A stretch of DNA of 32,000 nucleotides from Ruminococcus albus 7 = DSM 20455 (GCF_000179635.2 NC_014824.1:388707-420706), one strand, 5' to 3'; positions 6,438-28,266 are shown, counted from the stretch's first letter. The notes: generated from the letters alone by a model not told the origin. Made by a program: numbers and translations.

Positions 6438-6469
6438 CTCCCTGTTTTCAATAAACGGGGAGTTTTTAT
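6438..6469 (+). terminator. intrinsic terminator
   Basis: ctccctg / cggggag stem (one G-U pair), 11-nt loop, then tttttatt. Confidence 0.6.
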
Positions 6470-6526
6470 TTATTTGGATTTTCAGATATAATTGTTATAG
6501 AGTGTATCATTGATAACTTGGATTTT
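6464..6526 (+). promoter_or_regulatory. junction promoter module A plus leader box
   Basis: TTTTAT 6464-6469, ATTTTC 6478-6483, TATAAT 6487-6492. Leader box ttgataacttggatttt at 6510-6526. Confidence 0.55.
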
Positions 6527-6633
6527 AACACAGTCAGGAGGAGTATTTATAGCAAATATATAGGAAAATACAGATGATCAACTATACGAATCTGATAAAT
6601 GCAATAAAGTTAATTATTACCGAAAGGAGAAAT

Positions 6634-7161
6634 ATGATGAATAAAACTATAATTGTAATAAATGGCAAAGGCGGCTGTGGGAAAGATACGCTTTGCAATT
6701 TTGCTTCGGAAAAGTATCCAACATTAAACGTGTCATCCATTGATCCCATGAAGAAAATGGCTGAGATAATCGGATGGAACGGAAGTAAAACTCTTGAAGA
6801 CAGAAAATTCCTTGCTGATCTGAAATCTCTTGTAACACGTTATAACGACGGTGCCAACGAGTATATTCTGAAAAAAGCAGAAGAATTTGCTGGCTTACCG
6901 GAATATAAGGTCATGTTCGTTCATATTCGAGAACCCGAAATGATAGAACATTTCAAAGAAACTGTAAAACATCGTGTATGCGGCATTACTGTTGTCACTC
7001 TTCTGGTCAGCAGGAACGAAAAGGATTATCTTGTTTTCGGAAACAGAGCTGATGATGAGGTAAATAAATATAATTATGATCATGTATTTGAAAATAACGA
7101 TGACCTTCACAGCACAAAAGAGTCTTTCCTTAAATTTCTTGATTCGGTCCTGACTGATTAA
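6634..7161 (+). CDS. P-loop NTPase, phage dNMP-kinase-like
   Basis: AAGGAG RBS before ATG 6634. The Walker A motif INGKGGCGKDT resembles the GKDT P-loop of T4-type deoxynucleoside monophosphate kinases. Assignment is by motif only. Confidence 0.55.
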   Translation: MMNKTIIVINGKGGCGKDTLCNFASEKYPTLNVSSIDPMKKMAEIIGWNGSKTLEDRKFLADLKSLVTRYNDGANEYILKKAEEFAGLPEYKVMFVHIREPEMIEHFKETVKHRVCGITVVTLLVSRNEKDYLVFGNRADDEVNKYNYDHVFENNDDLHSTKESFLKFLDSVLTD

Positions 7162-7166
7162 GCGTT

Positions 7167-7205
7167 ATCTCCCTTCTTGTTTTACAAGTGGGGAGATTTT
7201 ATTAT
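7167..7205 (+). terminator. intrinsic terminator
   Basis: atctccc..cttgt ttt acaag..gggagat compound stem followed by ttttatt. Confidence 0.7.
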
Positions 7206-7260
7206 CGTATATTTTCTTGTAAAATAACAATAGTGAACATTCACTGATAGTTGGAGATCA
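7197..7260 (+). promoter_or_regulatory. junction promoter module B plus leader box
   Basis: TTTTAT 7197-7202, ATTTTC 7211-7216, TAAAAT 7220-7225. Leader box ctgatagttggagatca at 7244-7260. Confidence 0.55.
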
Positions 7261-7286
7261 AACAAACTATTACGAGGAGGATAATT

Positions 7287-8240
7287 ATGGATAATATCAA
7301 CGTAGTAAAAACACTGCATTTGTGGGAGAGAATCAACGCATCATTTAAAGGCAAAGTCTTTTTCATAAAGGACGTATACGACAGATTTACCGAAGAAAAA
7401 AAAGATACTATAAGGGGCAGAATATACGAACATCTTGGAAAAGAGTTTCAAAGAATAGGCAGAGGGATTTATTTTGCCGGATCAAAAGATGAGGCTGTGG
7501 CTTTGATAGAAGGGGATGGAAGAGATCTTTCTGTTTTTTCAAATGATTCATTCGACTGTATCATAACAGATCATCCGTGGTCTGACGAAAAGGCTAACAA
7601 AGGTGGAAACAGAAGTTTTGCAGATTATGAAACATTCAGGTACACACCCGATGACTTCAAGGAGAAGGCTCGCGTTCTTAAGGATGGCTGCTTCCTTGTG
7701 GAAATGATACCTGCCGAAAACGAATCAAACTACGAATATTTGTATCAGATCAAAAAAATGGCTGAAGCTGCTGGATTCCAGTATTATGCAAAGGTCCCAT
7801 GGACTAAAGGGACTTTTGTAGGAAATACAGGAAGAAAAGCAAAAAATCAGGAGGATATGATGATCTTCAGCCTTGGAAAAGCCCGCAGCATGAGACCTGA
7901 TGCCAAAAAGGATAAAGCTGATCCTACGGTAAAGCATTATATGAGTGGAGCTAACGGTATGCTTCCTACAAATTTTAATGTTCAGCCGCCTGATAAGAAA
8001 TCAAGGATCCATCAGGCAGAAAAACCTATGGGTCTTGTTGAACAGATCCTGGATTATCTTACCTTCGAGGGGGAAATCGTATTGGATCAATTTGCAGGCT
8101 CCGGTGTTGTAGGTGAGGCTTGCATAAATAAAAAAAGAGGGTGTGTTCTCATCGAAAAATCCAAAGAATGCATCAAAAAAATAATTCAAAGACTTGGTCT
8201 TTCTGATTGTTCAGTGATTTCTTCTTCAGCTATAGCATAA
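7287..8240 (+). CDS. orphan beta-class N6-adenine/N4-cytosine DNA methyltransferase
   Basis: GAGGAGG RBS before ATG 7287. Motif IV-like IITDHPW lies upstream of the AdoMet motif I, VLDQFAGSGVVG (the IV-then-I order defines the beta class). KP..L..QIL precedes motif I. No restriction enzyme gene is adjacent. Confidence 0.8.
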   Translation: MDNINVVKTLHLWERINASFKGKVFFIKDVYDRFTEEKKDTIRGRIYEHLGKEFQRIGRGIYFAGSKDEAVALIEGDGRDLSVFSNDSFDCIITDHPWSDEKANKGGNRSFADYETFRYTPDDFKEKARVLKDGCFLVEMIPAENESNYEYLYQIKKMAEAAGFQYYAKVPWTKGTFVGNTGRKAKNQEDMMIFSLGKARSMRPDAKKDKADPTVKHYMSGANGMLPTNFNVQPPDKKSRIHQAEKPMGLVEQILDYLTFEGEIVLDQFAGSGVVGEACINKKRGCVLIEKSKECIKKIIQRLGLSDCSVISSSAIA

Positions 8241-8245
8241 AAGAA

Positions 8246-8273
8246 AGAGGTTGTCATAGCGACAGCCTCTTTT
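8246..8273. terminator. bidirectional terminator between convergent methyltransferase and primase genes
   Basis: agaggttgtc / gacagcctct 10-bp stem (one G-U pair), 5-nt loop, with an A-run before and a T-run after. Confidence 0.65.
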
Positions 8274-8284
8274 AGCTTGAAGGA

Positions 8285-9454
8285 TCATATGAAATTGAAA
8301 GTTTCTTTGATAGCTTTTTCAGGATCATAATTTTTACGTAACGATAACTCTGTTACATCCTTTATAAAGTATGATTGAGCATCTAGGTCAGTAAGATCGT
8401 ATTTTTGAGATAATTGTTCTATTCTGTAAAAGATGGAATTTTTTAAATCATTTCTTATCAGCTGATAGAATTGTTTAGCTCCGAATTTTTTTATGAACTC
8501 ATCCGGATCTTTTGCATCCCGTATGCTTATCACGTATACTGTAAATCCGACACTTTCAAGTATGTCTATTGCTTTTTCAGTTGCCGCTATCCCGGCATCA
8601 TCATTATCATAACATATAATTATTTCGTCTGAATAACGCTTTAGCAATAAAGCCTGTTTGGTTGTAAGAGCTGTCCCACAGCTCGCCACAGCGGTTCTGA
8701 AGCCTGCCTGATGCATTGATATCACATCGAGATTACCTTCACATAATATCGGTGTTTCACCTTTACTTATGTTTTTTACGGCATAGTTCAGAGAAAACAA
8801 GAAGTTGTTTTTGGTATAGCATGGTGTGTTTTTGGTATTTAGATACTTAAAATTGTTATCACCATCTAGTTTTCTGCCACCAAATCCGATGATATTTCCG
8901 TTTATATCTATAAAAGGGAATATAGCTCTGTTATTAAAAAAATCAATGATCTCATCGTTTTTGGATACTGTAACCAGTGAGCTTTGAAGAAGCTGTTCGA
9001 TCGTGTATCCTAATCCAAGCATATGTTCTTTCAGTGATGTGAAATTTCCATCTGCATAACCCATTCTGAAATTACATATGGTCTCTGTTGTAAGACCTCT
9101 TTTATTTATAAGATAATCCAGGCATACATTTTCCTTTTTTGAAAATAACCTTTCAAAAAAGAATTTTGCAGCTTCGTAATTCAACTCATAAAAAGTTTTT
9201 AAATCGCGAGGTTTTGTATGTATCACATGATTTTTCTTTCCAACGGCATCTTTGTAATGGATCTTATTTTCGTTCATGAATCTCGCCTGATCTCCATTTT
9301 TGCCGCAGTTAAAACAATGATAGCAGTTTTCTTTTTCAAAAACGTATAGCTGTATAGCTCCGCAAAAAGGGCATTTTCCGCGATATAGCCCATTCCCGAT
9401 GTGCTTAAGTGATGTTTTTACGGAAATTATTTTGAGAATACTGTTATTTTTCAT
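8285..9454 (-). CDS. dnaG: DnaG-type DNA primase (CHC2 zinc finger plus TOPRIM), element-encoded
   Basis: AAGGAG RBS. Zinc finger CPFCGA...CYHCFNCGKNGD. TOPRIM motifs ILCEGNLDVIS and ICYDNDDAG. Confidence 0.85.
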   Translation of the reverse strand: MKNNSILKIISVKTSLKHIGNGLYRGKCPFCGAIQLYVFEKENCYHCFNCGKNGDQARFMNENKIHYKDAVGKKNHVIHTKPRDLKTFYELNYEAAKFFFERLFSKKENVCLDYLINKRGLTTETICNFRMGYADGNFTSLKEHMLGLGYTIEQLLQSSLVTVSKNDEIIDFFNNRAIFPFIDINGNIIGFGGRKLDGDNNFKYLNTKNTPCYTKNNFLFSLNYAVKNISKGETPILCEGNLDVISMHQAGFRTAVASCGTALTTKQALLLKRYSDEIIICYDNDDAGIAATEKAIDILESVGFTVYVISIRDAKDPDEFIKKFGAKQFYQLIRNDLKNSIFYRIEQLSQKYDLTDLDAQSYFIKDVTELSLRKNYDPEKAIKETFNFI

Positions 9455-9498
9455 TTATATCATTTCTCCTTTGTTTAAGAGTGGATCCTTCAAATTTT

Positions 9499-9560
9499 CG
9501 CTCCAATTTTTCAATTTTATCTTTCGATTAAATTATATCAGAAAATAATAAATGATAAAA
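9499..9560 (-). promoter_or_regulatory. junction promoter module K plus leader box (minus strand, drives the primase)
   Basis: Read on the minus strand: TTTTAT 9560-9555, ATTTTC 9546-9541, TATAAT 9537-9532. Leader box ttgaaaaattggagcg at 9514-9499. Confidence 0.55.
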
Positions 9561-9576
9561 AATAAAAAAAGCTTGT

Positions 9577-9639
9577 TTTTATCTGAGTGAATTTTCTTCT
9601 ACAATATAATCAGAGATAACGATTGATAACTGGAGATCA
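9577..9639 (+). promoter_or_regulatory. junction promoter module C plus leader box (divergent from K)
   Basis: TTTTAT 9577-9582, ATTTTC 9591-9596, TACAAT 9600-9605. Leader box ttgataactggagatca at 9623-9639. Confidence 0.55.
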
Positions 9640-9894
9640 TTAATTGTTGCTCTATATCGATGTTCTAAACCCTCCAACTATCGATATTAACTACCGTTTC
9701 AAGGCTATAATAAATTAATAAGCCATTATCATATATCTTACTACTCTATAATTTCCTTTTAGGAATGTACATATACTTATCGAACCACTTATCAAATCTC
9801 TTTTTCAATTTCCTTCCTTATTCTCACAGTGATTCTCACCTCATTGTCACTGTGTAATATATACCACTTATCATATTATTTATCAAATTTTTAC

Positions 9895-9929
9895 GGAGCA
9901 TGTACCCGGCGCTGTTGTGTACATGCTCC
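9895..9929 (+). promoter_or_regulatory. perfect 11-bp hairpin abutting the RBS of 9949-10215
   Basis: ggagcatgtac / gtacatgctcc with a 13-nt GC-rich loop. It ends 1-2 nt before GAAAGGAG. Function unknown. Confidence 0.35.
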
Positions 9930-9948
9930 CGAAAGGAGTATTTTACAT

Positions 9949-10215
9949 ATGAACGTCACATTTCTTACTAAAACAATAGACGATAGATTTTCGATATTGG
10001 AGCTCGGCAGTAATGTCGAGTCAATGAAGAGTCTTTTAAAGGCTCATGTCAAGCGCTTTCTGGATAAGAAAGCAAACGTAACATCAATAGAACCTGCAAT
10101 GCACTCATCAGAGGATATGGGTTCTGTCATAACATTTTCTGATAATAAGGGAAAAGAGCATACAGCTCGATTTACTTTGTTATCGGGAGATGCAGATGAA
10201 TTTTTTAAACACTGA
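9949..10215 (+). CDS. small hypothetical protein
   Basis: ATG 9949 follows AAGGAG by 10 nt. The upstream part of the track ORF (from 9829) has no RBS and contains the hairpin. A terminator follows. Confidence 0.55.
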   Translation: MNVTFLTKTIDDRFSILELGSNVESMKSLLKAHVKRFLDKKANVTSIEPAMHSSEDMGSVITFSDNKGKEHTARFTLLSGDADEFFKH

Positions 10216-10226
10216 GCAACAATAAA

Positions 10227-10258
10227 CGCCTTCCTGAATTATACGGGAAGGTGTTTTT
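10227..10258 (+). terminator. intrinsic terminator
   Basis: cgccttcc / ggaaggtg stem, 11-nt loop, then tttttat. Confidence 0.7.
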
Positions 10259-10317
10259 ATTTGCCTGAATTTTCAATTATAATTTTAGTAGTGATATGAT
10301 TTGATGATTTGGAGCAT
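10255..10317 (+). promoter_or_regulatory. junction promoter module D plus leader box
   Basis: TTTTAT 10255-10260, ATTTTC 10269-10274, TATAAT 10278-10283. Leader box ttgatgatttggagcat at 10301-10317. Confidence 0.55.
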
Positions 10318-10355
10318 TTCATATCCTAAAAATTATAGAAAGAAAGGTTATAAAA

Positions 10356-10724
10356 ATGAATATAAGCAGTACATACAGAAAACTGATCAAGAGAGGGCAG
10401 GTGTATTTTGCTGACCTCGGTGACGGAATAGGCTCTGAAATGGCAGGCGTAAGACCTGTTATCATTATCCAGAATAATATGGGAAATAAGTATTCTCCTA
10501 CTGTAACGGTAGTACCTATTACGTCTAAATTCAAAGATCTGAATCAGCCCACTCACTTCTTAGTACAGGCAGGAACAGCCAATCTTAATAAAGACAGCGT
10601 GATCCTTGCCGAAAGTATAAGAACTATTTCAAAAGAACGCTTGAGATACTATATTGGAGATCTTAATGATAACTTCATGAAGCAAATAAGCAATACAGTA
10701 AAGATCCAATTAGGCCTGAATTAA
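10356..10724 (+). CDS. mazF: PemK/MazF-family type II toxin (mRNA interferase)
   Basis: Family-typical KRGQVYFADLG...GSEMAGVRPVIIIQNNMGNKYSPTVTVVPITSK. About 120 aa, the usual length. Confidence 0.85.
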   Translation: MNISSTYRKLIKRGQVYFADLGDGIGSEMAGVRPVIIIQNNMGNKYSPTVTVVPITSKFKDLNQPTHFLVQAGTANLNKDSVILAESIRTISKERLRYYIGDLNDNFMKQISNTVKIQLGLN

Positions 10725-10734
10725 GGAGGAAATA

Positions 10735-11130
10735 ATGATGGTAAGAGGAATTTACAAAGGTGGATTCATCTCAAGACAGGATGCAGCTGAGGGAAAATAT
10801 TATTGTCCAAAATGTAAAAGACCGCTGTACATAACAAAGACCCCGGGTTATTTTGGACAATGCTTTCACTGTGATGAAGATTTCTACATGATAGAAGCTC
10901 TGTCGGAAGAAAATGAATGCGGCGTTATGGTAGGCAGACCCTTAAACGGAATAACTGTTAATGGTGGAATCGAGTACTTGCTTAACAGCGAAAATAAGAG
11001 GATGATATTCGATTCACCCGAAGACGCAAAGAATTATTTAATTCAAAACGGAGTGTCTAAAGTAGCTGCTGAGTTATTCTACTATATAGACGCGGCTATG
11101 CAGACTGAGATCGAAAAAACCGATCAGTAA
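10735..11130 (+). CDS. zinc-ribbon protein immediately downstream of mazF
   Basis: AGGAGG RBS, 10 nt after the mazF stop. CPKC...CFHC four-Cys ribbon at the N-terminus. The C-domain is unassigned. Confidence 0.65.
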   Translation: MMVRGIYKGGFISRQDAAEGKYYCPKCKRPLYITKTPGYFGQCFHCDEDFYMIEALSEENECGVMVGRPLNGITVNGGIEYLLNSENKRMIFDSPEDAKNYLIQNGVSKVAAELFYYIDAAMQTEIEKTDQ

Positions 11131-11147
11131 AGAAAAGGAGCATTTCA

Positions 11148-11774
11148 ATGAATATCAATAAAATTAACGAACTACTTGCCTACAAATATTCTCTTTATAC
11201 AGAGGATGTTGATGAAGCACTCAATGACGAAAAAATTAAAGCATTCGCTGATAAAATAAACAGCTCATCAAGCCGTGAAGAAATGACTGATAAAGATGAA
11301 AGACTAAGAGAAATGATCTATTCATACCTTTCAAGAAGAAAAGAAAATGGCATTTATGTGTCTGTGTACAAAGGAGTAGACGAACACAGATGTATGAAAG
11401 AAGGTATCAGGCATCCTAAAAATATAGTAAGTGATATCTTGTACCGAGTTGGTCAAGCAAAACTTGAACCGGATGAGTATTTTACTGAATCATATAACCT
11501 TAAAGAGATTTACAGTGAATATAAATACGTAATACCCGAATCTATAGCTCAAAAATGTCGATTTATGTGTGATGTTGATTATGGCAACTGCGAGGGAATA
11601 TATTATGACCTTATGCTGTTTGATCATAGCAGATCGGTCCATAGCCTTATAGTAGGCAAAACGTTATCCAAAGATGAACAAGCGTTTATGAAAATGAGTT
11701 ATATGGGCTCTTTTGTAAATCTTCTTCTTAAGAACGATTTTTGCAAGGTAAACACATCAGTTCTAAATCTGTAA
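11148..11774 (+). CDS. hypothetical protein, third gene of the mazF unit
   Basis: AAGGAG RBS. Same strand, 17 nt after the previous stop. A terminator follows. Confidence 0.7.
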   Translation: MNINKINELLAYKYSLYTEDVDEALNDEKIKAFADKINSSSSREEMTDKDERLREMIYSYLSRRKENGIYVSVYKGVDEHRCMKEGIRHPKNIVSDILYRVGQAKLEPDEYFTESYNLKEIYSEYKYVIPESIAQKCRFMCDVDYGNCEGIYYDLMLFDHSRSVHSLIVGKTLSKDEQAFMKMSYMGSFVNLLLKNDFCKVNTSVLNL

Positions 11775-11783
11775 TTTTGGGAA

Positions 11784-11811
11784 AGAGTCTCATCGTGAGG
11801 CTCTTTTTTTA
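11784..11811 (+). terminator. intrinsic terminator
   Basis: agagtctca / tgaggctct stem (one G-U pair), 3-nt loop, then tttttttatt. Confidence 0.7.
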
Positions 11812-11835
11812 TTGCAGTAAATTTTCTTTTAAAAT
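11807..11835 (+). promoter_or_regulatory. junction promoter module J
   Basis: TTTTAT 11807-11812, ATTTTC 11821-11826, TAAAAT 11830-11835. No clear leader box. Confidence 0.5.
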
Positions 11836-11897
11836 ATTAATGGAAAGAAAAATAGTCTTTCTTCATAATGAAATGTATAAAGAAAGGGTGTTGAAGT

Positions 11898-12104
11898 ATG
11901 TTTAAGTGTTCCGGTTCTTACAGAAGAAGTAACTATAAGAAGATGAAAAGAGATGCTTTCAAAAGAAAACATCTTTATGAAATAAGAGCTGAAGCAGAGA
12001 AAAGACGGGATGAATGCTATGATAGAAAGCATCGTCGTTTTGTCTCCGAAAGGACATACTCCACTCAGGCTGAATATATTAGAAAATATTTTGCATGTCA
12101 ATAA
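11898..12104 (+). CDS. small highly basic hypothetical protein
   Basis: AAGGGTG 8 nt upstream. Co-directional with module J, which lies 60 nt upstream. Preferred over the overlapping minus-strand ORF 11829-12110, which has no promoter or RBS and would read through module J. Confidence 0.4.
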   Translation: MFKCSGSYRRSNYKKMKRDAFKRKHLYEIRAEAEKRRDECYDRKHRRFVSERTYSTQAEYIRKYFACQ

Positions 12105-12132
12105 ATACATAACTTAAAAAGAGGGATTCTTA

Positions 12133-12468
12133 ATGGCAGGATATAATTACAAATTAAACATGAGCAATAATGCCGTCGAAGCTTATGAAAAGGGAGCAAA
12201 GCCCTATAACGAGTGGAGTCTGGCAGAAATAATAGACAAGGTACTGGATATCTATGATCCGGAAGAACACGCCTTTGATATCAATAAATTAGTAAACACT
12301 CCTCTCAAAGCAGTAAAATTATGTGTTCTTTCATATTCATCGTGGCATCACACAACAAAGAAATACAAAGAAACAGAATTCTATTTTGTGGATCGGAAAA
12401 AGTTATTGATGCTTACGGATAAAGATATAGATAAATACGTGGATTTCGTAATGCAAAAAGAAATGTAA
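12133..12468 (+). CDS. hypothetical protein (phage/plasmid-type)
   Basis: GAGGGA RBS. Same strand, 28 nt after the previous ORF. Confidence 0.65.
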   Translation: MAGYNYKLNMSNNAVEAYEKGAKPYNEWSLAEIIDKVLDIYDPEEHAFDINKLVNTPLKAVKLCVLSYSSWHHTTKKYKETEFYFVDRKKLLMLTDKDIDKYVDFVMQKEM

Positions 12469-12492
12469 CTTTATACTCTTTCAGCAAGAAGA

Positions 12493-12513
12493 CTCCCACC
12501 TCTTAGGTGGGAG
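12493..12513 (+). other. 8-bp hairpin resembling the hairpin after tnpB (possible IS200/IS605 left-end structure, or a terminator lacking a U-tract)
   Basis: ctcccacc tctta ggtgggag at 12493-12513, compared with cccccgcc tcttta ggcggggg at 14073-14094. Loop and stem layout are the same. Unlike every other terminator in the array, it has no T-run. Confidence 0.35.
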
Positions 12514-12700
12514 ATGAATTGCGTTTCTTACTCACTGAACTTTTCACTTCGCTCATAGCATAAAATATTCAGTCGAATAAAATGGAGTGGCTAAAATACA
12601 GTGGATTTGGATAATAAAGCACATTCTTGCTTTACAAAATGGGAGATTTTTTTAACAGGGCGAGAACACACGTTATTTCAGTTGTGGGATGAAGCCCTGT

Positions 12701-12763
12701 TTATATTATTACTAATTTTCTTGTATAATAATATTGTAGATAATAATTAATAACTGGAGGTCA
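12701..12763 (+). promoter_or_regulatory. junction promoter module E plus leader box (upstream of tnpB)
   Basis: TTATAT 12701-12706, ATTTTC 12715-12720, TATAAT 12724-12729. Leader box ttaataactggaggtca at 12747-12763. Confidence 0.55.
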
Positions 12764-12842
12764 GACAGATCAAATAATACTACTATTACAACACTAAAGA
12801 ATTTAAAATCAAGAACATAAAGCCATAAAAGGAGTGAACACT

Positions 12843-13961
12843 ATGGCAAACAAGGCATTTAAATTCAGAATATATCCAAATAACGAGCAAAAGGTTTTGT
12901 TTGCCAAAACCTTCGGCTGTGTGAGATTGGTATATAACTATTGGTTATACAAAAGAATCAAGCAGTATAAAGAATATGAAACAACTTTAAGTTACAACGC
13001 TTGTGCCAAAGAAATGGCTGGACTTAAGAAAATGGAGAAATACTCATTCTTACGGGAAGTGGACAGCGTATCATTACAGCAGTCGCTTCGACACCTGGAT
13101 ACAGCGTTTCAGAACTTCTATAAACAGCCTAAAACAGGATTTCCCAGGTTCAAATCAAAAAAATGTAAAAAGAACAGCTATTCTACTGTTTGTATCAATG
13201 GTAACATATCCGTATCCAACGGATATTTGAAATTACCAAAAGTCGGACAAGTAAAATTAAGGCAGCACAGGAACATTCCTGATGAATATGTTCTCAAGTC
13301 TGTGACAGTTAGTCAGACTCCAAGCGGAAAATACTATGCAAGTATTCTGTATGAGTACGAAAACCAAGTACAGGAACAGGAACTGCATGACTTCTTAGGG
13401 CTTGACTTTTCGATGCACGAGCTGTACAAAGACAGCAACGGCAATGAACCGGCTTACCCCGGATACTACAGAGGAGCTGAAAAAAAGCTAAAAAGAGAAC
13501 AAAGAAAACTTTCTCTTATGCAGAAAGGCTCTAAAAACCGTGACAAACAACGTATCAAGGTTGCTAAAATGCATGAGAAAGTTGCAAATCAACGAAAGGA
13601 TTTTCTACATAAACAGTCAAGACAGATAGCCAATGCCTATGATTGTGTATGTATAGAAGATCTTAACATGCAAGCAATGTCTCAGGCACTTAAATTCGGC
13701 AAGTCGGTTTCAGATAACGGCTGGGGAATGTTTGTAACATTCCTGAAGTACAAACTAGAAGAGCAAGGCAAAAGGCTTGTAAAGATAGATAAATTCTTTG
13801 CGAGCAGTCAGACTTGTTCGTGCTGTGGTTACATCAATAAGGAAACAAAGAACCTTGCTATAAGAGCATGGGATTGTCCCGAATGCGGAACTCACCATGA
13901 CAGAGATGTAAATGCAGCAATAAATATAAGAAACGAAGGCATGCGAATAGCATTAGCGTAG
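12843..13961 (+). CDS. tnpB: TnpB (IS200/IS605-family OrfB, RNA-guided RuvC endonuclease); no tnpA present
   Basis: N-terminus MANKAFKFRIYPNNEQ. RuvC triad candidates GLDFS, CIEDLN and HDRDVNAAINI. Zn ribbon CSCCG...CPECG. ATG 12843 follows AAAGGAG. Confidence 0.9.
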   Translation: MANKAFKFRIYPNNEQKVLFAKTFGCVRLVYNYWLYKRIKQYKEYETTLSYNACAKEMAGLKKMEKYSFLREVDSVSLQQSLRHLDTAFQNFYKQPKTGFPRFKSKKCKKNSYSTVCINGNISVSNGYLKLPKVGQVKLRQHRNIPDEYVLKSVTVSQTPSGKYYASILYEYENQVQEQELHDFLGLDFSMHELYKDSNGNEPAYPGYYRGAEKKLKREQRKLSLMQKGSKNRDKQRIKVAKMHEKVANQRKDFLHKQSRQIANAYDCVCIEDLNMQAMSQALKFGKSVSDNGWGMFVTFLKYKLEEQGKRLVKIDKFFASSQTCSCCGYINKETKNLAIRAWDCPECGTHHDRDVNAAINIRNEGMRIALA

Positions 13962-14098
13962 CCTTAAATCATAAAAACCGTGGGACACACGGGGTTAGCT
14001 CGCTTATGCTTAGTGCATTAGTACTATCGAACGAGAACCGAACTCGCTGAGGTCAGGGGAAACCCCCGCCTCTTTAGGCGGGGGAGGATGTCACATCA
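13962..14098 (+). ncRNA. putative omega-RNA (reRNA) scaffold / IS right-end region
   Basis: Structured, more GC-rich non-coding stretch immediately 3' of tnpB (stems ccgtg/cacgg, cccccgcc/ggcggggg). This is where TnpB guide-RNA scaffolds are encoded. Exact 5' and 3' ends cannot be set by eye; the scaffold normally also overlaps the 3' end of tnpB. Confidence 0.5.
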
Positions 14099-14104
14099 GC
14101 TTGA

Positions 14105-14140
14105 AAATGCTCTGTGTTTTTCAGGGCATTTATTTTTTTT
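14105..14140 (+). terminator. intrinsic terminator
   Basis: aaatgctctg / cagggcattt stem (one G-U pair), 7-nt loop, then tatttttttt. Confidence 0.7.
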
Positions 14141-14165
14141 AAAATACTAAATTTTCTTATATAAT
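14137..14165 (+). promoter_or_regulatory. junction promoter module F
   Basis: TTTTAA 14137-14142, ATTTTC 14151-14156, TATAAT 14160-14165. Short leader, no full box. Confidence 0.5.
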
Positions 14166-14203
14166 ATAATTGTCTAAACATAGACGGAAGGGAAGTGCTA
14201 TTA

Positions 14204-14455
14204 ATGGCAAAAAAATTAGTAACAAAGGTTATTTTTGAGGTTGGTGATATTCAAGTAAATATAAGAGATGTTATGGATTCGGTCAAAGTAGCTTGGGTAA
14301 ATGCCGGGAATTCACCGGATAGCCTGAATGAACTTACATTTTACATCAAAGCAGAGGACAGGAAGGCTTATTTTATAGGTAATGGCGGAAAAGTGAAAGG
14401 AAGTGTTGCGCTAAGTAATGCGGACGATCTTTCCAATGATGTTATTTTCGAATAA
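14204..14455 (+). CDS. small hypothetical protein
   Basis: ATG 14204 (MAKKLVTKV...) lies downstream of GGAAGGGAAG. Single-gene unit. Confidence 0.6.
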   Translation: MAKKLVTKVIFEVGDIQVNIRDVMDSVKVAWVNAGNSPDSLNELTFYIKAEDRKAYFIGNGGKVKGSVALSNADDLSNDVIFE

Positions 14456-14537
14456 ATTTGCTGTAATTATAATGTATGTATTTACTGCTCCACTATTAGT
14501 GGAAAACACTTTAACATAAACAAGGAGGAAACCTTAA

Positions 14538-14848
14538 ATGAAAACAAGAAGAATCATGACAATACTTGCCGCGATGACAATGGTAACAGCTTTTGGTGCA
14601 ATGTCTGCATCTGCAGAGTCAGGCATTATCGAGGATCTGTCTGTTAATGAGCTTCCTTCAGAGGATGTTCCCGTAGAGGAAGACCCTGCTGAAGTCATAC
14701 CTGTAAACGACGATGCACCTACAGATTACACTCCCACAGAAAATCAAGCAATAAAAACGCAAATCCTAATACAGGTGCAGTAAGCATGAGCTTTGCAGTT
14801 GCTGCTGTAGCTGCCGGCGCGATGATTGTAAGCAAAAAGAGAAGATGA
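14538..14848 (+). pseudogene. mini cell-wall-anchored protein (signal peptide, acidic Pro-rich stalk, NPNTG sorting signal), frameshifted
   Basis: AGGAGG RBS. Signal peptide MKTRRIMTILAAMTMVTAFGAMSASA. The frame stops at 14783, but the -1 frame continues KNANPNTGAVSMSFAVAAVAAGAMIVSKKRR* to 14848 (LPXTG-like motif, hydrophobic helix, basic tail). The shift must lie in 14693-14757; one extra A in the A5 run 14753-14757 restores the frame. Confidence 0.6.
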
Positions 14849-14890
14849 AAGTATCATTAGGTGTTCAGTTACAAAAATACAGTAATATTT

Positions 14891-14921
14891 CAGCATCCGA
14901 AATCTCGGATGCTGTTTTTTA
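14891..14921 (+). terminator. intrinsic terminator
   Basis: cagcatccga / tcggatgctg perfect 10-bp stem, 4-nt loop, then ttttttatt. Confidence 0.75.
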
Positions 14922-14978
14922 TTGATTTGAATTTTCGTATATAATATAAACGAGACCGATATTGATGATATGGAGTTC
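14917..14978 (+). promoter_or_regulatory. junction promoter module G plus leader box
   Basis: TTTTAT 14917-14922, ATTTTC 14931-14936, TATAAT 14940-14945. Leader box ttgatgatatggagttc at 14962-14978. Confidence 0.55.
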
Positions 14979-15052
14979 TGATGTTGGATCCCCATTCACT
15001 TGTCGAACTTACAATCACACTTCAAACTCTAAAACTTAAGGAGGAAGTAATA

Positions 15053-15493
15053 ATGCTGAACAATTGCGTAATTATGGGAAGAATCACAAAGGATCTGGAA
15101 ATGAGACAGGTAGGAGACGGAAATGCTGCAGTAAACTTCACTGTTGCTGTAGACCGCGACTACAAAACGAAGTCTGGAGAAACTATGACAGACTTCATAC
15201 CCTGTCAGGCTTACGGAAAGACTGCCGAGTTTATCGGTAAGTATTTCGGAAAGGGAAGAATGATCAATGTAATTGGTTCGTTCAGATCAAATCCTTATAA
15301 GGATAAGGACGGCAATAACAGGATCATCTACTGTCTGCAGGCAGAAAAGGTAAACTTCACCGGCGAGCCGAAGAAGGATGCCTCAACTCAGCCTCAGAAC
15401 AACTATGTTTCTGATGCGCCAATCGAAGCACCTGATGATTTCCCTTCGTTCGATAGCTTCAACGGAGACTTTGACGACGGAGACGTATTCTGA
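15053..15493 (+). CDS. ssb: single-stranded DNA-binding protein
   Basis: AAGGAGG RBS before ATG 15053. OB-fold N-terminus MLNNCVIMGRITKDLEMRQVGDG..AVNFTVAV. Gln/Pro-rich linker and acidic tail DFDDGDVF. Confidence 0.85.
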   Translation: MLNNCVIMGRITKDLEMRQVGDGNAAVNFTVAVDRDYKTKSGETMTDFIPCQAYGKTAEFIGKYFGKGRMINVIGSFRSNPYKDKDGNNRIIYCLQAEKVNFTGEPKKDASTQPQNNYVSDAPIEAPDDFPSFDSFNGDFDDGDVF

Positions 15494-15504
15494 TCCAACA
15501 CAAC

Positions 15505-15541
15505 AAAAAAGGGCTGTCATTAAAAAAATGGCAGCTTTTTT
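15505..15541 (+). terminator. intrinsic terminator
   Basis: gctgtcat / atggcagc stem (one G-U pair), with an A-run before and tttttt after. Confidence 0.6.
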
Positions 15542-15568
15542 CTATTTACTAAAATTTTCAGCTATAAT
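15540..15568 (+). promoter_or_regulatory. junction promoter module H
   Basis: TTCTAT 15540-15545, ATTTTC 15554-15559, TATAAT 15563-15568. The box-like ttgtagagaggagc (15582-15595) doubles as the RBS here. Confidence 0.5.
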
Positions 15569-15602: not shown

Positions 15603-16820
15603 ATGAACAACAAGATAGTTACTTTTCTTTCAGCTGCATTTATTCTTGCAGCTGCAACTTCATGCGGAGTTGATTCGCGGGAGGTGATAAACCAAAAATA
15701 TCCCGTAGAAGCAGTTAACCTTACTAAGATAACATCCATAGACGGAGTGTATTTTTATGTGCCGGATGAACATTTGAATTCAAAAGATAATACAACAGAA
15801 AATGGATATTATCTTAAGGATGATGACTTTTTAGTAGAGGTAAGGAGAATGAATGCTTCAGCTGCGATCGATGATCTTGCTGCTTTATCATCATTTTTTT
15901 CAGGACAATTCTCCGAAAACATCTATATTAAGCAGAAATTGGAAGACGGGAAATTTGAGTGCATATTAAGAGATGATGAAAAAAACGGTTATATAAAAAC
16001 CGTAAATGATGAATATGCAATTCTGTGCGTGTCCGATGATGATAAAACGGCATCTACAATTGCTGATAGCTTGAAATTATCAGAAACCAAGAAAATAGCA
16101 GACGGAAAAACAGAATCTGTTAACATTGATGATGACCTGTCCGCTTCGGTAAATGGAGTAGAGATAGGTTCGGCACTATCAGTAGAAGACATTCAGAATG
16201 ATTTTGCTCAGATGGGAGCAAACTTTGAAAGCATGAAAGAGGACCTATCAAATATAAACGGTTCCTCTATCCGGGATATCAACCACAAAGTCATAATGCA
16301 GTTTAATGCCATCGAATCTACCGGAAAAGAAGCTCAGCAAGCTTACCTGAATTCGGTTGCTGCATATAAAGATGCAGTGAGTAAATATAATGTAGAGTTA
16401 AGTAACGGTATCAACCTCAATTCCACTAAAGAGGAGATCCAAAAAGTACTGAAAATAGATCTTTCTCCGGAATGGGAAAGAATAGTGATAAATAATCAGA
16501 ACAAAACTTCCGATATCAGAAAAATAATAATTGAGTACAACAATGAAAAGGACAGTGTAGAATCTATAATTATCAACGATATAAATGAAATCAAAAATGA
16601 AGTTTCAAACAGAGAACAGATAAGAGATAAAATGAATGAAGAGGTTTCAAAGGAACCTATAAGGATCCCTGAAGGAATATTTGATGATAATAGCAGCGGA
16701 AGCAAGAATAAGAGTGATGTAGTTAACGAGGATGTGCTATCAGATATTGTAAAAGAAGATATAACGAAGTCTGATAATGATCCGAACACCGAATTAGGGC
16801 TTCAGGGGATCAATAAATAA
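15603..16820 (+). CDS. lipoprotein of unknown function
   Basis: GAGGAG RBS. Signal peptide with lipobox-like AATSC (MNNKIVTFLSAAFILAAATSCG). Acidic, Ser/Asn/Asp-rich product. Confidence 0.7.
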   Translation: MNNKIVTFLSAAFILAAATSCGVDSREVINQKYPVEAVNLTKITSIDGVYFYVPDEHLNSKDNTTENGYYLKDDDFLVEVRRMNASAAIDDLAALSSFFSGQFSENIYIKQKLEDGKFECILRDDEKNGYIKTVNDEYAILCVSDDDKTASTIADSLKLSETKKIADGKTESVNIDDDLSASVNGVEIGSALSVEDIQNDFAQMGANFESMKEDLSNINGSSIRDINHKVIMQFNAIESTGKEAQQAYLNSVAAYKDAVSKYNVELSNGINLNSTKEEIQKVLKIDLSPEWERIVINNQNKTSDIRKIIIEYNNEKDSVESIIINDINEIKNEVSNREQIRDKMNEEVSKEPIRIPEGIFDDNSSGSKNKSDVVNEDVLSDIVKEDITKSDNDPNTELGLQGINK

Positions 16821-19679: not shown

Positions 19680-19770
19680 ACACCGCCGCTTTTTTACCCA
19701 TCTTATATGTTATACTATATACCGAAGATGAAAAAAGCTTCGGTATATTTTTTATCATTGAAAGGAGCGC
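19680..19770 (+). repeat. intergenic repeat copy 1: extended -10 overlapping a terminator-type hairpin, then an RBS
   Basis: acaccgccgctttttt..catatgTtatact (TGtTATACT 19708-19716), ataccgaag / cttcggtat hairpin (19719-19746), atttttta, gaaaggagc. Homologous to 21546-21628. Confidence 0.6.
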
Positions 19771-21545: not shown

Positions 21546-21628
21546 ACACCGCCGTTTTTCTCCCCATCCCATATGTTATACTATATACCGAAGCAGGAAG
21601 CTTCGGTATTTTTTTACCCGAAAGGAGC
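21546..21628 (+). repeat. intergenic repeat copy 2
   Basis: acaccgccgttttt..catatgttatactatataccgaagc aggaa gcttcggtat tttttta..gaaaggagc. The stem is conserved and the loop differs from copy 1. Confidence 0.6.
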
Positions 21629-22135: not shown

Positions 22136-22465
22136 TTGAAAAAAGGAGTGTTCTGGCTGATAAACGGCGAACTGCTGACTTTCCCCTTTGACGGAAAATA
22201 CCCCGAGGGCACAGCAAAGTCGGGGGACACTTACAATCATCAAAAACTGTGGGAAATAATCCGACCCAAGGGCTGTAAAAAGCTTTTTGACTATTACCCG
22301 CGGGGCAGAGTTGACATTTCAAACAAAGGCAAAGCTGTGATCTATATGAGCGTGCATATTGGCGAAGATCGTCTTACCAAGATAAAGTCAGCCTTTGAGA
22401 TATCGGGCGATACCGTTATCAGGTACGACCACAGCAGACATTATATGTGCTTTCTTGACAAATGA
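22136..22465 (+). CDS. small conserved-looking hypothetical protein
   Basis: TTG start 11 nt after GAGGTGA and 2 nt after the previous stop. GVFWLINGELLTFPF...YYPRGRV... No domain recognised. Confidence 0.5.
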   Translation: MKKGVFWLINGELLTFPFDGKYPEGTAKSGDTYNHQKLWEIIRPKGCKKLFDYYPRGRVDISNKGKAVIYMSVHIGEDRLTKIKSAFEISGDTVIRYDHSRHYMCFLDK

Positions 22466-22475
22466 GGAGGATAAT

Positions 22476-23408
22476 ATGAACGTGACCATACTTTCCCGCA
22501 AGCAGGCAGAAGAACTTATCGCCGATGGCAGATTTCCCGAAAACAGCGCTGTTATTAGCTTTTACGATCCTCAGGAATATGCAACCGATGGTTACAGCCG
22601 TGTAGATTTCAGCCGCATAAATACAGAAGTTTTCTATGTTGAAGCCCCCGATATCGACTGGGATAGTTTTGAAAATATATCACCCGCTGAAGTCGGACTG
22701 ATAAAAGATATTTCCGAACTTGCAGACTTTATCTATGCCGCATTTGATCAAGATAAAAATATTATCTGCCAATGTGATTTCGGGCAAAGCAGAAGCGCAG
22801 GCTGTGCTGCCGCGATATTGGAACATTTTTATTCGTCAGGCAAAACCATATTTGAGGATAGAAAATATTTTCCGAACCAGATGATATTCGCCGAAGTTTT
22901 ACAGGCGCTGATACGAAAGAAAAGAGAAATGAAAGGAAATAAAGCTCAGATGAAAGTATATATCTATTCCCGTGAACAAGCCGAGAAAATGATAGCAGAA
23001 AATCGGTTCCCGACAAATACCGCTGTTATCAGTTTTTACGATCCTGCCATTAAGCACATCAACAAGAATTACACCCATATCGATTACAGCGGAGTCTGCG
23101 ATATGGTATTTTACAGCGAACTTGATGACCTGGATATTGATGTGCTTGGCAACAAGGGTTATACTTTTGAGAGCTATTTTTCCGAAGCCGATGACATGGC
23201 TGCGTTTGTTAAAAAAGCTTTTGAGTGCGGGCGGGATATCGTCTGCCAGTGCGAATATGGTCAAAGCCGAAGCGCAGGCTGTGCTGCGGCTATTCTGGAA
23301 CATTTCTATCATACTGGCATAACAGTGTTTGCGGATTATGCGCGGTTCCCTAATCAGCTGGTGTTCAATAAGCTGTTTGAGGCGTTGGAAAAGATCGATC
23401 CAAGGTGA
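22476..23408 (+). CDS. tandem-duplicated Cys-based (CX5R) phosphatase-like protein
   Basis: GAGGAGG RBS before ATG 22476. Two homologous halves of about 155 aa each end in CQC(D/E)(F/Y)GQSRSAGCAAAILEHFY, a CX5R(S/T) P-loop like the small predicted protein-tyrosine-phosphatase family. Confidence 0.6.
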   Translation: MNVTILSRKQAEELIADGRFPENSAVISFYDPQEYATDGYSRVDFSRINTEVFYVEAPDIDWDSFENISPAEVGLIKDISELADFIYAAFDQDKNIICQCDFGQSRSAGCAAAILEHFYSSGKTIFEDRKYFPNQMIFAEVLQALIRKKREMKGNKAQMKVYIYSREQAEKMIAENRFPTNTAVISFYDPAIKHINKNYTHIDYSGVCDMVFYSELDDLDIDVLGNKGYTFESYFSEADDMAAFVKKAFECGRDIVCQCEYGQSRSAGCAAAILEHFYHTGITVFADYARFPNQLVFNKLFEALEKIDPR

Positions 23409-25606: not shown

Positions 25607-26599
25607 TTATATGACGTCATCCATTGACTCTTTTCTATCGAAAAAGTCACGAAGGATACTGTCACCGATCTCATCACAGAAGTCACATGCAGCTTTTGTC
25701 GATATCGTTTCCATATTCCATTCCTCTTTCACCTTTGCAAGCGCAGAAACTTTCTGTCCATAAACCTGCAGCTTAGCATCTCTGGAAATAAGGAGTTCTC
25801 CGTTCTTTGCATATTTACCTACTATGAAATTGGAGATCTTTTTACCTTTATTCATCTTTATGAACATTGCTTGCTGGTTCATAAGATTTGCGATCTGACT
25901 GTCGCTGTACTCTATACCGTTGACAAATCCATGCTTATGGATAAGTACAAATCTTTCAGCAGGAGGGAGTCTGTCAAGAGCCTTTTCAACGTCGGATTTC
26001 ATATATTGCTGATCAACAATCTCCTCGCAAGTTGCTGTCAAGTCAGGAATAGAGTGATTAAAATTGTCATCATCAAGAGACTGAGCCTCGTTTTGACGAG
26101 AGCCAACCATGCATCTTTCAATGGTGGTTGTAGGTATATCTTCACCTCGGTTTGCCAGAATGCAGGATCTTATCTCATCAGCGTTAGGATAATAATTAGC
26201 TCCTTTAATGGCCTGAATATCGGCTATGGCCATCTTTATCTTTTTTTCGTTGATCATGTAGTGATTCGACGAGTTAGATGTTGCTTTGTTAAGCTCATCG
26301 AGTATTGCAGCTTTGATCTGCGACACAGCGAAGGTATGGAACTGAGTACCTTCATTGAATTTATATCTTTTTGCAGCATAGAATATACCGTATCGACCGG
26401 CCTGCATAAGTTCGTCCCAACTAGTCCTCTTGTTTGTGGTAAAGTGCTTTAAAGTCGAAGTTATCAGACCGATGTTCTTTTCGATGAGCACAGTAGCTGC
26501 AAGTTCCTTTTCACGCTTAGTGAATTGTGATTCAAGATCCTGATAGATCCTGACGATATCTTCGTTCGTAAGTTCTATTATCTCTTCTCTTGTGATCAT
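25607..26599 (-). CDS. sigma-70-family RNA polymerase sigma factor with atypical region 4 and a C-terminal extension
   Basis: GGAGAG RBS. Region 2-like LIEKNIGLITSTLKHF....WDELMQAGRYGIFYAAKRYKFNEGTQFHTFAVSQIKAAILDEL. Region 4-like LDRLPPAERFVLIHKHGF..G.EYSDSQIANLM, followed by about 90 extra residues. Confidence 0.7.
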   Translation of the reverse strand: MITREEIIELTNEDIVRIYQDLESQFTKREKELAATVLIEKNIGLITSTLKHFTTNKRTSWDELMQAGRYGIFYAAKRYKFNEGTQFHTFAVSQIKAAILDELNKATSNSSNHYMINEKKIKMAIADIQAIKGANYYPNADEIRSCILANRGEDIPTTTIERCMVGSRQNEAQSLDDDNFNHSIPDLTATCEEIVDQQYMKSDVEKALDRLPPAERFVLIHKHGFVNGIEYSDSQIANLMNQQAMFIKMNKGKKISNFIVGKYAKNGELLISRDAKLQVYGQKVSALAKVKEEWNMETISTKAACDFCDEIGDSILRDFFDRKESMDDVI

Positions 26600-26626
26600 A
26601 ATTATACTCTCCTTATGGTTCTTTGT

Positions 26627-26887
26627 CTACTCGGCTTTTTTGACTTTTAAATAATCGAGCGCTCTTGGAATCATGCCGCCTAATTCCGCGAGAAGAATGT
26701 ATGATGATAGCTCGATTTTATTCTTCGCGGCTTCGATGTACTCAAGTACAGACAAAACCTGGTCGCCGGGGATATTAACTTTTGTCGTAACAACAAGCTG
26801 ATTAAAAATATCTATCGTGTTTTTATTTTTTAGATCATGCGTTAATGCATAAACCGTTAAAGCATCAGCAATATTATCATCAAACAA
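26627..26887 (-). CDS. small hypothetical protein co-transcribed upstream of the sigma gene
   Basis: TTG 26887 lies 5 nt after GGAGGTGG. The track start at 26926 lies at or upstream of the predicted transcription start of the promoter at 26931-26959. The gene ends 27 nt before the sigma ATG. Confidence 0.5.
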   Translation of the reverse strand: MFDDNIADALTVYALTHDLKNKNTIDIFNQLVVTTKVNIPGDQVLSVLEYIEAAKNKIELSSYILLAELGGMIPRALDYLKVKKAE

Positions 26888-26930
26888 AAATCCCACCTCC
26901 GGATATATTTTTCTTTCTTTCGACAACTAA

Positions 26931-26959
26931 ATTATATCATATAAATTTTTAGGTTGCAA
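26931..26959 (-). promoter_or_regulatory. near-consensus sigma-A promoter of the small-ORF/sigma operon
   Basis: Read on the minus strand: TTGCAA (26959-26954), 17-nt spacer, TATAAT (26936-26931). Confidence 0.55.
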
Positions 26960-27031
26960 TAGGATTGGTAAAAAAATTTTTCTATATACTTAAAGTGGTA
27001 ATTTAGTACAAAAAAAAACACAGCAAATTTT

Positions 27032-27060
27032 TTCTTTTTTAGAAAATATTCTGCTATAAT
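27032..27060 (+). promoter_or_regulatory. junction-type promoter module I (weaker copy)
   Basis: TTCTTT 27032-27037, ATATTC 27046-27051, TATAAT 27055-27060. The downstream ataattatatatata resembles module H. Confidence 0.4.
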
Positions 27061-28246: not shown

Positions 28247-28266
28247 AAAGAAAGAGGTACAAAACT

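Follow-up and report, generated by a model that had tools for sequence, protein, structure and literature searches.

Putative terminator-fused, three-part promoter cassettes along the backbone of a Ruminococcus albus megaplasmid family

The window analysed here, a 32,000-nt stretch of Ruminococcus albus 7 = DSM 20455 (NC_014824.1:388707-420706), is part of a Ruminococcus albus megaplasmid on which one promoter-like cassette, generally fused to the terminator of the preceding gene, recurs from operon to operon. The promoter is tripartite, consisting of a T-rich tract, TTTTTATT, at -36 to -29, a box, AATTTTC, at -22 to -16 and, three bases further on, a TATAAT hexamer; what makes it unusual is that an element at -21 to -16 is conserved and that terminator and promoter overlap rigidly. 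We infer the function of the cassettes from their conservation, position and specificity, on which basis they very probably constitute a real promoter class that is specific to the element.

Anatomy, conservation and specificity of the cassettes

A first-pass annotation of the window had listed eleven copies of a module, TTTTAT-N8-ATTTTC-N3-TATAAT, each spanning 29 nt from the upstream hexamer to the -10 in window coordinates. On re-reading the sequence, all eleven coordinate ranges proved correct: ATTTTC (ATATTC in the copy at 27046) lies exactly 3 nt ahead of TATAAT, TAAAAT or TACAAT in 11/11 copies, and the TTTTAT hexamer is exact in 7/11. The exact pattern ATTTTCNNNTAHAAT has 10 matches in the window, compared with 0.10 ± 0.30 expected from 100 dinucleotide shuffles, and 17 matches, compared with 2.14 expected, when up to one mismatch is allowed. 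Unsupervised repeat finding recovers the same family as repeat groups D1 and D3. All ten exact copies are intergenic and oriented toward the next gene, with predicted 5′ untranslated regions of 28-337 nt.

To describe the promoter we built a sequence logo, with the box and the -10 as anchors, of 26 non-identical copies drawn from the window and from related loci. At the positions that had no part in the selection, T is present at -35, -34 and -32 in all 26 copies, at -36 in 24 and at -30 in 23, while A is present at -22 in 22 copies and at -31 in 19; it is because these positions outside the selected motif are near-invariant that we describe the promoter as tripartite. When the T-tract and AATTTTC alone serve as the anchor, TAnAAT follows exactly 3 nt later at all distinct backbone sites but one, the sole exception being TAATAT at L141:9697. 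The -10 is thus of the canonical sigma-A type, being TATAAT in 8 of the 11 window copies and TAAAAT or TACAAT in the others. The -35 position does not conform to sigma-A: the TTTTAT located 17 bp upstream of the -10 matches TTGACA at two of six positions, and the third-position G is found in none of the 26 copies. Nor is this an extended -10 promoter, as TGn occurs in 5/26 copies.

According to the first-pass annotation, the upstream hexamer is the U-tract of the preceding intrinsic terminator, and the module has no -35. The former statement holds for 8 of the 11 window copies, in which hairpins of -12 to -17 kcal/mol end 0-6 nt before the -35; the same arrangement (z scores of -2.6 to -7.4) is seen in 22 of the 26 copies of the logo, where a GC-rich hairpin and a U-tract at a gene end give the cassette the make-up of an intrinsic terminator. 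Additionally, five of the cassette hairpins were detected by an independent terminator scan. The divergent copies at 9546 (minus strand) and 9591 (plus strand) and the copy at 27046 have no upstream hairpin, and the T-tract is nonetheless present there at the same rigid distance. The T-rich element at -36 to -29 is therefore part of the promoter and not a mere nearby tail, which means that the description of the modules as lacking a -35 cannot be kept; where a hairpin abuts it, the T-tract serves as U-tail and promoter element at once. The proposed division of the region into units of 1-3 genes by terminator-fused, promoter-like modules is supported, and each gene or small operon appears to be an insulated unit, ended and restarted within approximately 45 bp. 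The hairpin lies wholly upstream of -36, with the T-tract, the box and the -10 outside it, unlike the arrangement of the Frpo/ssi single-strand promoters in plasmid leading regions, whose -35 and -10 pair as a duplex within a long folded single strand. Separately, an attC-like or iteron reading of the cassette was ruled out by its orientation, its perfect -10 and its fixed distance to the start codon.

Related loci were collected by two routes. The sigma protein encoded in the window (ADU24113.1 of R. albus, on a 420,706-bp contig) led to six further lineages, and the motif scan led to R. albus 8 (L119), which carries five cassettes in 8 kb. The sigma of another R. albus assembly (L011/L144) is 100% identical to that of the window, those of four metagenomic lineages are 83% (L139/L150), 70% (L137/L151/L152), 38% (L199) and 33% (L201) identical, and a 387,527-bp megaplasmid contig (L141) encodes a sigma of the same 90%-identity cluster. 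A motif scan of related genomes had been proposed in the first pass; the cassette recurs in every related element sampled. Orthologous cassettes are located upstream of recD2, the 442-aa gene, the 382-aa gene, the genes for SSB, DUF6465 and the lipoprotein, nrdD and the gene for the polymerase III alpha subunit. Between orthologues, motif positions are 95% identical and other positions 52%, a comparison in which about 12 of the 21 motif positions had served in selecting the copies. The hairpins are kept with different sequences, and the flanks and free positions drift. In the distant lineages L199 and L201 the box relaxes to A/G-T-W-W-T-C, ATTATC being the commonest form in L201, and the T-C at -17/-16 is found in 45 of 47 copies across lineages. 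The backbone has a conserved order (polymerase III alpha, DnaG-like, two recD2 and a 380-aa gene; divergently sigma, then SSB, DUF6465 and nrdD) on contigs of 100-420 kb. The genes predicted to be driven by the window cassettes encode a phage-type dNMP kinase, an orphan N6/N4 methyltransferase, a DnaG primase, PemK, SSB, DUF6465, the lipoprotein and small unknown open reading frames (ORFs).

Other genes of the window were said to have ordinary promoters, and this was confirmed at 17014, the WYL gene, 20866, the sigma operon (26887, minus strand) and 31470, where we found TTGNNN-N17-TATAAT/TATAGT; most of these also have the TGn of an extended -10. Between 16.9 and 25.5 kb, a stretch encoding an endonuclease, a WYL protein, LRR proteins and IS3, promoters are canonical and there is no cassette; in L137 the lipoprotein gene directly adjoins the sigma gene, so this stretch is inserted cargo. 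The module is not the local sigma-A consensus, as the first pass had argued, given that cargo genes, a mobilisable element and a chromosomal sample all have TTGACA-type promoters without it. With a relaxed definition of the cassette (T-rich -36 to -29, N-W-W-W-T-C/A, N3, TA(T/A/C)AAT), 148 kb of element DNA contained 49 cassettes, whereas 49 kb of other Ruminococcus DNA contained none. The latter comprised a 20.9-kb chromosomal stretch, the mobilisable element and a third contig; the assembly from which the mobilisable element came is a close R. albus relative, matching the window region at 99.96% identity. These control loci carry plain TTGACA-N17-TATAAT promoters. By simple arithmetic, the chance of finding no cassette in the controls under equal rates is approximately 1e-6. 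The strict pattern has 43 matches in the whole of IMG/VR, always single, compared with 10 in approximately 106 kb of element DNA. Based on the empty controls and these single matches, the motif seems to be neither the host consensus nor that of a known phage family. A scan of the genome collection with TTTTAT-N8-ATTTTC-N3-TAWAAT gave at least 120 matches, mostly single and attributable to chance, and among the matches listed only the R. albus 8 locus had three or more modules. A PLSDB search returned nothing but distant (approximately 70% identity) tnpB matches; R. albus plasmids are evidently not in PLSDB.

A candidate sigma factor and the competing explanations

The candidate trans-acting factor is a 330-aa protein of the sigma-70 family encoded on the minus strand of the window (Table 1). 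The stretch from region 2 to within region 4.2 can be aligned to SigA and FliA, from which it differs in the residues of the helices that read the -10 and -35. These residues were judged by alignment against the E. coli sigma-70 sequence and numbering. FliA-like in the segment that reads the -10, the protein has no counterpart there of the two tryptophans (FHTFAVSQIKAAILDEL), and the R-E-R-Q residues are missing from its -35 recognition helix. Region 2.4 is FliA-like (FAVSQIKAAILDEL), and the bit score to FliA models is 53, compared with a family cut-off of 190. A conserved extension of approximately 80 residues follows region 4.2. The AlphaFold model of the protein has a mean predicted local distance difference test score (pLDDT) of 54, falling below 50 from residue 165, and is too poor for a structure search or for an assessment of region 4 and the C-terminal extension. 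The family is tiny, with six representative clusters at E <= 1e-30 among 1.84 billion proteins; it was detected solely in R. albus isolates and metagenomes, and the gene stands in the same backbone synteny at every locus whose context was read.

The sigma operon itself has a predicted promoter of the canonical sigma-A type, TTGCAA-N17(TGa)-TATAAT, at approximately 26960-26932, which in four lineages (the window, L137, L199 and L201) takes the form TTG(C/A)(A/C)(A/G/T)-N17-TGnTATAAT. The layout TTG-N17-TGnTATAAT is that of a textbook Firmicute sigma-A promoter. Almost all backbone genes besides the sigma operon carry the cassette, and the combination has the layout of a sigma cascade. A plasmid-borne sigma gene behind a sigma-A-type promoter, which is a prediction in the R. 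albus element, is also the arrangement of SigN on the plasmid pBS32, with which we compare it below. The conserved pairing with a family-specific sigma factor, together with the canonical promoter of that factor's operon, speaks for a sigma cascade no less strongly than for an appropriator.

The explanation that we propose is a two-step cascade like that of SigN on pBS32. Host sigma-A would make the element sigma from its canonical TTGnnn-N17-TGnTATAAT promoter, and RNA polymerase carrying this FliA-like sigma would then read the cassettes. The near-invariant T-C (-17/-16) and A-T (-21/-20) would be read as an upstream extension of the -10, with the T-tract substituting for the -35. Taken as a whole, an element-specific promoter class that is probably read by a sigma factor is the reading we favour, and we hold it with moderate confidence; the narrower proposition, that the reader is the element's own sigma, seems to us a nearly even question that leans slightly to the doubtful side.

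Several points weigh against the proposed cascade. Promoter activity itself is deduced from the sequence. The -10 is a perfect sigma-A consensus at the 17-bp spacing that is the sigma-A optimum, and alternative sigma factors usually have a -10 of their own. The loci were mostly reached via the sigma gene, so the co-occurrence of sigma and cassette is partly built in, and in R. albus 8, which has cassettes, the sigma could not be shown. Among orthologues the region 4.2 helix varies (QQAMFIK, TYGMFVK, TYGLYVR), whereas the T-tract is constant. The sigma model is unreliable past residue 165, which makes a DNA-reading role of the C-terminal extension speculation. The weakest point is the control, in which only about 21 kb was true chromosome, from a different R. 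albus strain.

The alternative that survives best is that host sigma-A reads the cassettes, the T-tract and AATTTTC exerting their effect by way of DNA shape or contacts in the spacer, whether unaided or together with an activator or appropriator of the element. We regard this as possible, if rather doubtful; the element sigma would in that case govern other genes elsewhere on these 100-420-kb elements. A perfect TATAAT at exactly 17 bp from the upstream hexamer is what sigma-A would be expected to use, a cassette also precedes tnpB inside an insertion sequence (IS), and the loci covered approximately ±10 kb around the sigma gene, so that the regulon of the sigma could lie elsewhere. There is a precedent in E. 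coli sigma-70, which senses spacer sequence near -18 through R451 (PMC3130263). However, sigma-A promoters in the same DNA have TTG at the -35 and usually TGn, whereas the cassettes never have TTG and have TGn in 5/26 copies, and none was found in the 49 kb of non-backbone Ruminococcus DNA. Furthermore, the near-invariance of T-C at -17/-16 (45/47 copies) makes base-specific reading look likelier than curvature, and the preferred box shifts between lineages from ATTTTC to ATTATC. As regards the variant with an activator, searches of the neighbouring genes against Pfam, NCBIfam, PHROG and PADLOC gave no candidate; these were general domain searches, none of them aimed at AsiA or MotA, and they returned no activator-like domain.

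The first-pass annotation had compared the modules with activator- or appropriator-dependent phage middle promoters, a reading that our results do not establish. In T4 middle promoters, a MotA box near -30 replaces the -35 and is used with the MotA/AsiA pair; the cassettes instead have their box at -22 to -16, and the sequences of the two boxes are unrelated. The element belongs to a megaplasmid family for which we found no phage relatives in IMG/VR or INPHARED, the latter matching tnpB alone. IMG/VR also held no relative of the sigma and no contig with multiple cassettes, and for that reason the phage reading was dropped.

It is quite unlikely that AATTTTC is the operator of a backbone-wide repressor over otherwise ordinary promoters, comparable to KorA/KorB on IncP or omega on inc18. 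The same short motif does overlap the core promoter of most backbone operons, with a conserved weaker variant at one of them, and plasmid global regulons look like this (RK2, pSM19035). Nevertheless, the box is single, asymmetric and 6-7 bp long, with no partner half-site in the logo and no accompanying dyad or tandem repeat, unlike KorA, KorB or omega operators, which are palindromic sites or tandem heptads; a promoter without it would still have no usable -35, and no repressor-like gene was recognised nearby. That the cassettes are recent duplicates of one intergenic segment, with ATTTTC as a functionless passenger, is very improbable: the hairpins and leaders of three R. albus 8 copies are nearly identical and the cassette copied into an IS indicates that cassettes do move, but between lineages the hairpins, the 6-nt spacer behind the T-tract and the 3-nt spacer ahead of the -10 have diverged and the box, T-tract and -10 have not, even at 33% sigma identity.

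Returning to the sigma cascade, a stronger version of it can be formulated, which we consider unlikely. Here, a small sigma family restricted to Ruminococcus megaplasmids would read a three-part promoter whose middle part, A-T-W-W-T-C (-21 to -16), would be a new kind of promoter element, perhaps contacted by the conserved C-terminal extension, and polymerase would be handed over from terminator to promoter. Because the first part of each promoter also serves as the U-tail of the terminator before it, polymerase leaving one gene would land directly on the next promoter and so pass from unit to unit. Recycling of polymerase after termination is known from single-molecule work (PMC6978380, PMC10372574).

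Three neighbouring products are candidates for a partner of the sigma or an anti-sigma factor. The 86-aa ORF is predicted to be co-transcribed with sigma and is syntenic in nearly all lineages, none being called in L199; the divergent 382-aa and 280-aa pair (27098-29109) is syntenic in every lineage sampled. None of the three proteins has a match in Pfam, NCBIfam, PHROGs or PADLOC. The cassette preceding this conserved pair, divergent from the sigma operon, has a variant box that recurs at the same gene in L150, L137 and L201 (AATATTC; AATAATC in L137) and reads ACTTATC in L199.

Cassette coordinates, leaders and mobile elements

Table 1. Cassettes, leader boxes and the candidate sigma operon in window coordinates; assignments of genes to cassettes are predictions
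Feature	Span	Strand	Hairpin	T-tract	Box	-10	Gene served or remark
Cassette 1	6438..6492	+	6438-6462	6463-6470 (TTTTTATT)	GATTTTC 6477-6483	TATAAT 6487-6492	Predicted start ~6499; dNMP-kinase-like gene 6574-7161 (PHROG dNMP kinase match)
Cassette 2	7167..7225	+	7167-7197	7196-7203	TATTTTC	TAAAAT 7220-7225	N6/N4 DNA methyltransferase, ATG 7287 to 8240
Cassette 3	9532..9561	-	none	9561-9554 (TTTTTATC)	9547-9541	TATAAT 9537-9532	DnaG-type primase 9454-8285 (-)
Cassette 4	9576..9605	+	none	9576-9583	AATTTTC 9590-9596	TACAAT 9600-9605	Divergent from primase; ~337-nt leader to 88-aa ORF 9949-10215
Cassette 5	10225..10283	+	10225-10255	10254-10261	AATTTTC	TATAAT 10278-10283	PemK/MazF gene (10356) and two ORFs, ending 11774
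Cassette 6	11781..11835	+	11781-11807	11806-11813	AATTTTC	TAAAAT 11830-11835	ORFs 11898-12104 and 12133-12468
Cassette 7	12654..12729	+	12654-12701	12700-12707 (TTTATATT)	AATTTTC	TATAAT 12724-12729	tnpB 12843-13961
Cassette 8	14105..14165	+	14105-14131	14136-14143	AATTTTC	TATAAT 14160-14165	DUF6465 gene (14204) and 81-aa ORF; orthologous copy L137:18547
Cassette 9	14891..14945	+	14891-14914	14916-14923	AATTTTC	TATAAT 14940-14945	SSB (14981/15053 to 15493); orthologue L137:15241
Cassette 10	15508..15568	+	15508-15540	15539-15546 (TTTCTATT)	AATTTTC	TATAAT 15563-15568	405-aa lipoprotein 15603-16820; orthologue L137:12261
Cassette 11	27031..27060	+	none		AATATTC (weak)		382-aa and 280-aa genes 27098-29109
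Leader box, TTGATAAnTGGAG(G)-like	6510-6523	+					Starts 16-19 nt after the -10
Other clear leader boxes	7244-7256, 9623-9635, 10301-10314, 12747-12760, 14962-14975						
Candidate sigma operon	25607..26965	-					86-aa ORF 26887-26627 and 330-aa sigma-70-family protein 26599-25607; candidate trans factor

Many cassettes are followed by a second conserved sequence. This leader box, TGATAAnTGGAG(G), begins 16-19 nt past the -10 in at least 18 of 47 copies; it is also present in L011, L119, L137, L150, L199 and L201 and is kept even at 33-38% sigma identity. In the recD2 and polymerase copies it serves as the ribosome-binding site itself, GGAGG being followed by an ATG at a distance of 7-9 nt; in many other copies the real ribosome-binding site is located 25-330 nt beyond it. 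We considered the leader box as a second FliA-type -10 (TGATAA compared with CGATAA) and rejected this because the adjacent GGAGG is plainly a working ribosome-binding site in the recD2 and polymerase copies. A search of Rfam gave nothing at gathering thresholds and three sub-threshold matches in leaders.

The longest leader of the window, the 337-nt leader at 9612-9949, contains the leader box three times in inverted orientation (9672-9683, 9785-9795 and 9864-9874), and its fold has a z score of -4.2 relative to shuffled sequences. It also contains short direct repeats of the ACTTATC type and, directly next to the ribosome-binding site, a hairpin with a 16-bp stem (9890-9934). A role as a regulatory leader is conceivable, as is one as an origin or iteron region beside the primase. 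The SSB gene may have two start sites: the frame (14981-15493) is open from an ATG located 6 nt after the GGAG of the leader box and 24 codons upstream of 15053, the start at 15053 has a strong ribosome-binding site, and L137 has GTG at the position aligned to the upstream ATG. Ends of Logan contigs (100% identity; SRR4055031-45, SRR3925597-98) fall 34-58 nt upstream of the predicted starts; as RNA and DNA are not distinguishable in them, we did not use them as evidence of transcript ends.

The TnpB element of the IS605 type (12475-14100) has before tnpB a complete cassette that comprises two hairpins, a promoter and a leader box. This cassette 7 is internal to the IS, as it lies between the left end (approximately 12475-12625) and tnpB. 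Phage record MT835477 contains a 76%-identical copy of the IS, with only approximately 80 nt in that interval and no cassette; part of the IS cassette resembles 7174-7204, and its leader resembles L119:2418. The IS seems to have captured a backbone promoter cassette.

Other observations concern the cargo and the remaining mobile elements. A 48-nt direct repeat, 90% identical, is present at 19680-19727 and 21546-21593 (ACACCGCCGCTTTTTTACCCATCTTATATGTTATACTATATACCGAAG); it precedes the LRR gene at 19775, lies close to the ORF at 21489 and may be a second, different repeated regulatory cassette of the cargo region. Within ORF 22395-23408, a 101-nt direct repeat, 76% identical, at 22759-22859 and 23236-23336 means that the protein has two tandem copies of one domain; the gene as called in L145 gave faint phosphatase-type Pfam matches. 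An element of the IS1595 family (30157-31173) is inserted relative to GCA_000621285.1, where 30156 joins 31174, and another R. albus assembly encodes an identical transposase, both chromosomally and on a megaplasmid contig. The IS3 OrfB of the window was called with a CTG start. In L137 (5795-7471), L151 and L152, a 558-aa [FeFe]-hydrogenase-like gene lies between a 291-aa gene and the recD2 pair, within the replication backbone.

Significance and comparison with known systems

In line with the first-pass annotation, which knew of no described class with this box, our literature searches found none, and the terminator-fused tripartite promoter is, as far as we found, undescribed. If the cassettes fire as predicted, a part of approximately 45 bp both terminates one gene and starts the next, and the element at -21 to -16 is an addition to the textbook promoter set. 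An uncharacterised sigma family is matched with a plausible regulon, giving a first handle on what may be a separate transcription programme for the replication genes of very large plasmids in a major rumen cellulose degrader; the genes on this programme would include those for the polymerase III alpha subunit, primase, the two RecD2 helicases, SSB and NrdD. With its rigid overlap between terminator tail and promoter, the cassette is a natural test bed for the idea that polymerase passes from a terminator to a nearby promoter. Should host sigma-A alone suffice to read the cassettes, what is left is a promoter variant of one plasmid lineage, unusual yet ordinary in kind.

Among -35-independent promoters, the spacer 'Z-element' of Yuzenkova et al. 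2011 is reportedly read by the beta-prime zipper. Like promoters with TGn or a Z-element, the cassettes combine a strong -10 with an extra element at -22 to -14 that offsets a poor -35; unlike them, they have TGn in 5/26 copies, their box matches no described spacer element, and a fixed T-rich element is added at the -35 position.

The leader box resembles the 5′ stabilisers of the STAB-SD type known from cry3A and SP82. Ribosome-mediated 5′ stabilisation of Firmicute mRNA has been described for hbs (PMC5737220). As in these stabilisers, GGAG(G) lies approximately 20 nt from the predicted 5′ end, often without a start codon and with the real ribosome-binding site downstream, whereas the conserved TGATAA upstream half of the leader box is unexplained by the stabiliser model.

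FliA/sigma-28 promoters have the consensus TAAAGTTT-N11-GCCGATAA, or TAAA-N15-GCCGATAA, with CGA in the -10. The cassettes share with them a long upstream-extended -10, a T-rich -35 end and an ATAA core, and the candidate sigma has a FliA-like region 2.4. They differ in lacking the diagnostic CGA of the -10 and TAAA of the -35: the ATAA core has neither CGA nor GCCG ahead of it, and the element further upstream reads TTTTTAT. To our knowledge, R. albus is not motile.

In SPO1, gp28 and the early operons of the terminal redundancy provide a phage sigma cascade and host takeover, the gp28 consensus being AGGAGA-N17-TTTNTTT. The megaplasmid resembles SPO1 in its string of short units, each with a promoter and a terminator, and in the proposed sigma made from a host promoter and serving a second promoter class. 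It differs from SPO1 in that we found no phage structural genes or phage relatives, and the gp28 consensus is unrelated to the cassette.

The closest parallel we describe is SigN (ZpdN) of Bacillus subtilis pBS32, a plasmid sigma whose gene is transcribed from sigma-A promoters and whose consensus is repeated before replication-type genes of the plasmid and not found on the chromosome (PMC6751061). SigN promoters have the form TTTACGTTT...GATA(T/A)AA, and their dependence on SigN was proven by Rend-seq, reporters and in vitro transcription (PMC6751061). The cassette sequence is unrelated to theirs, the cassette system is known from sequence alone, and neither a LexA site nor an autoregulatory promoter was seen at the R. 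albus sigma gene. In common with pBS32, however, the R. albus element is a large plasmid with a divergent sigma of its own behind a predicted sigma-A-type promoter, and distinct promoters are repeated on its replication genes.

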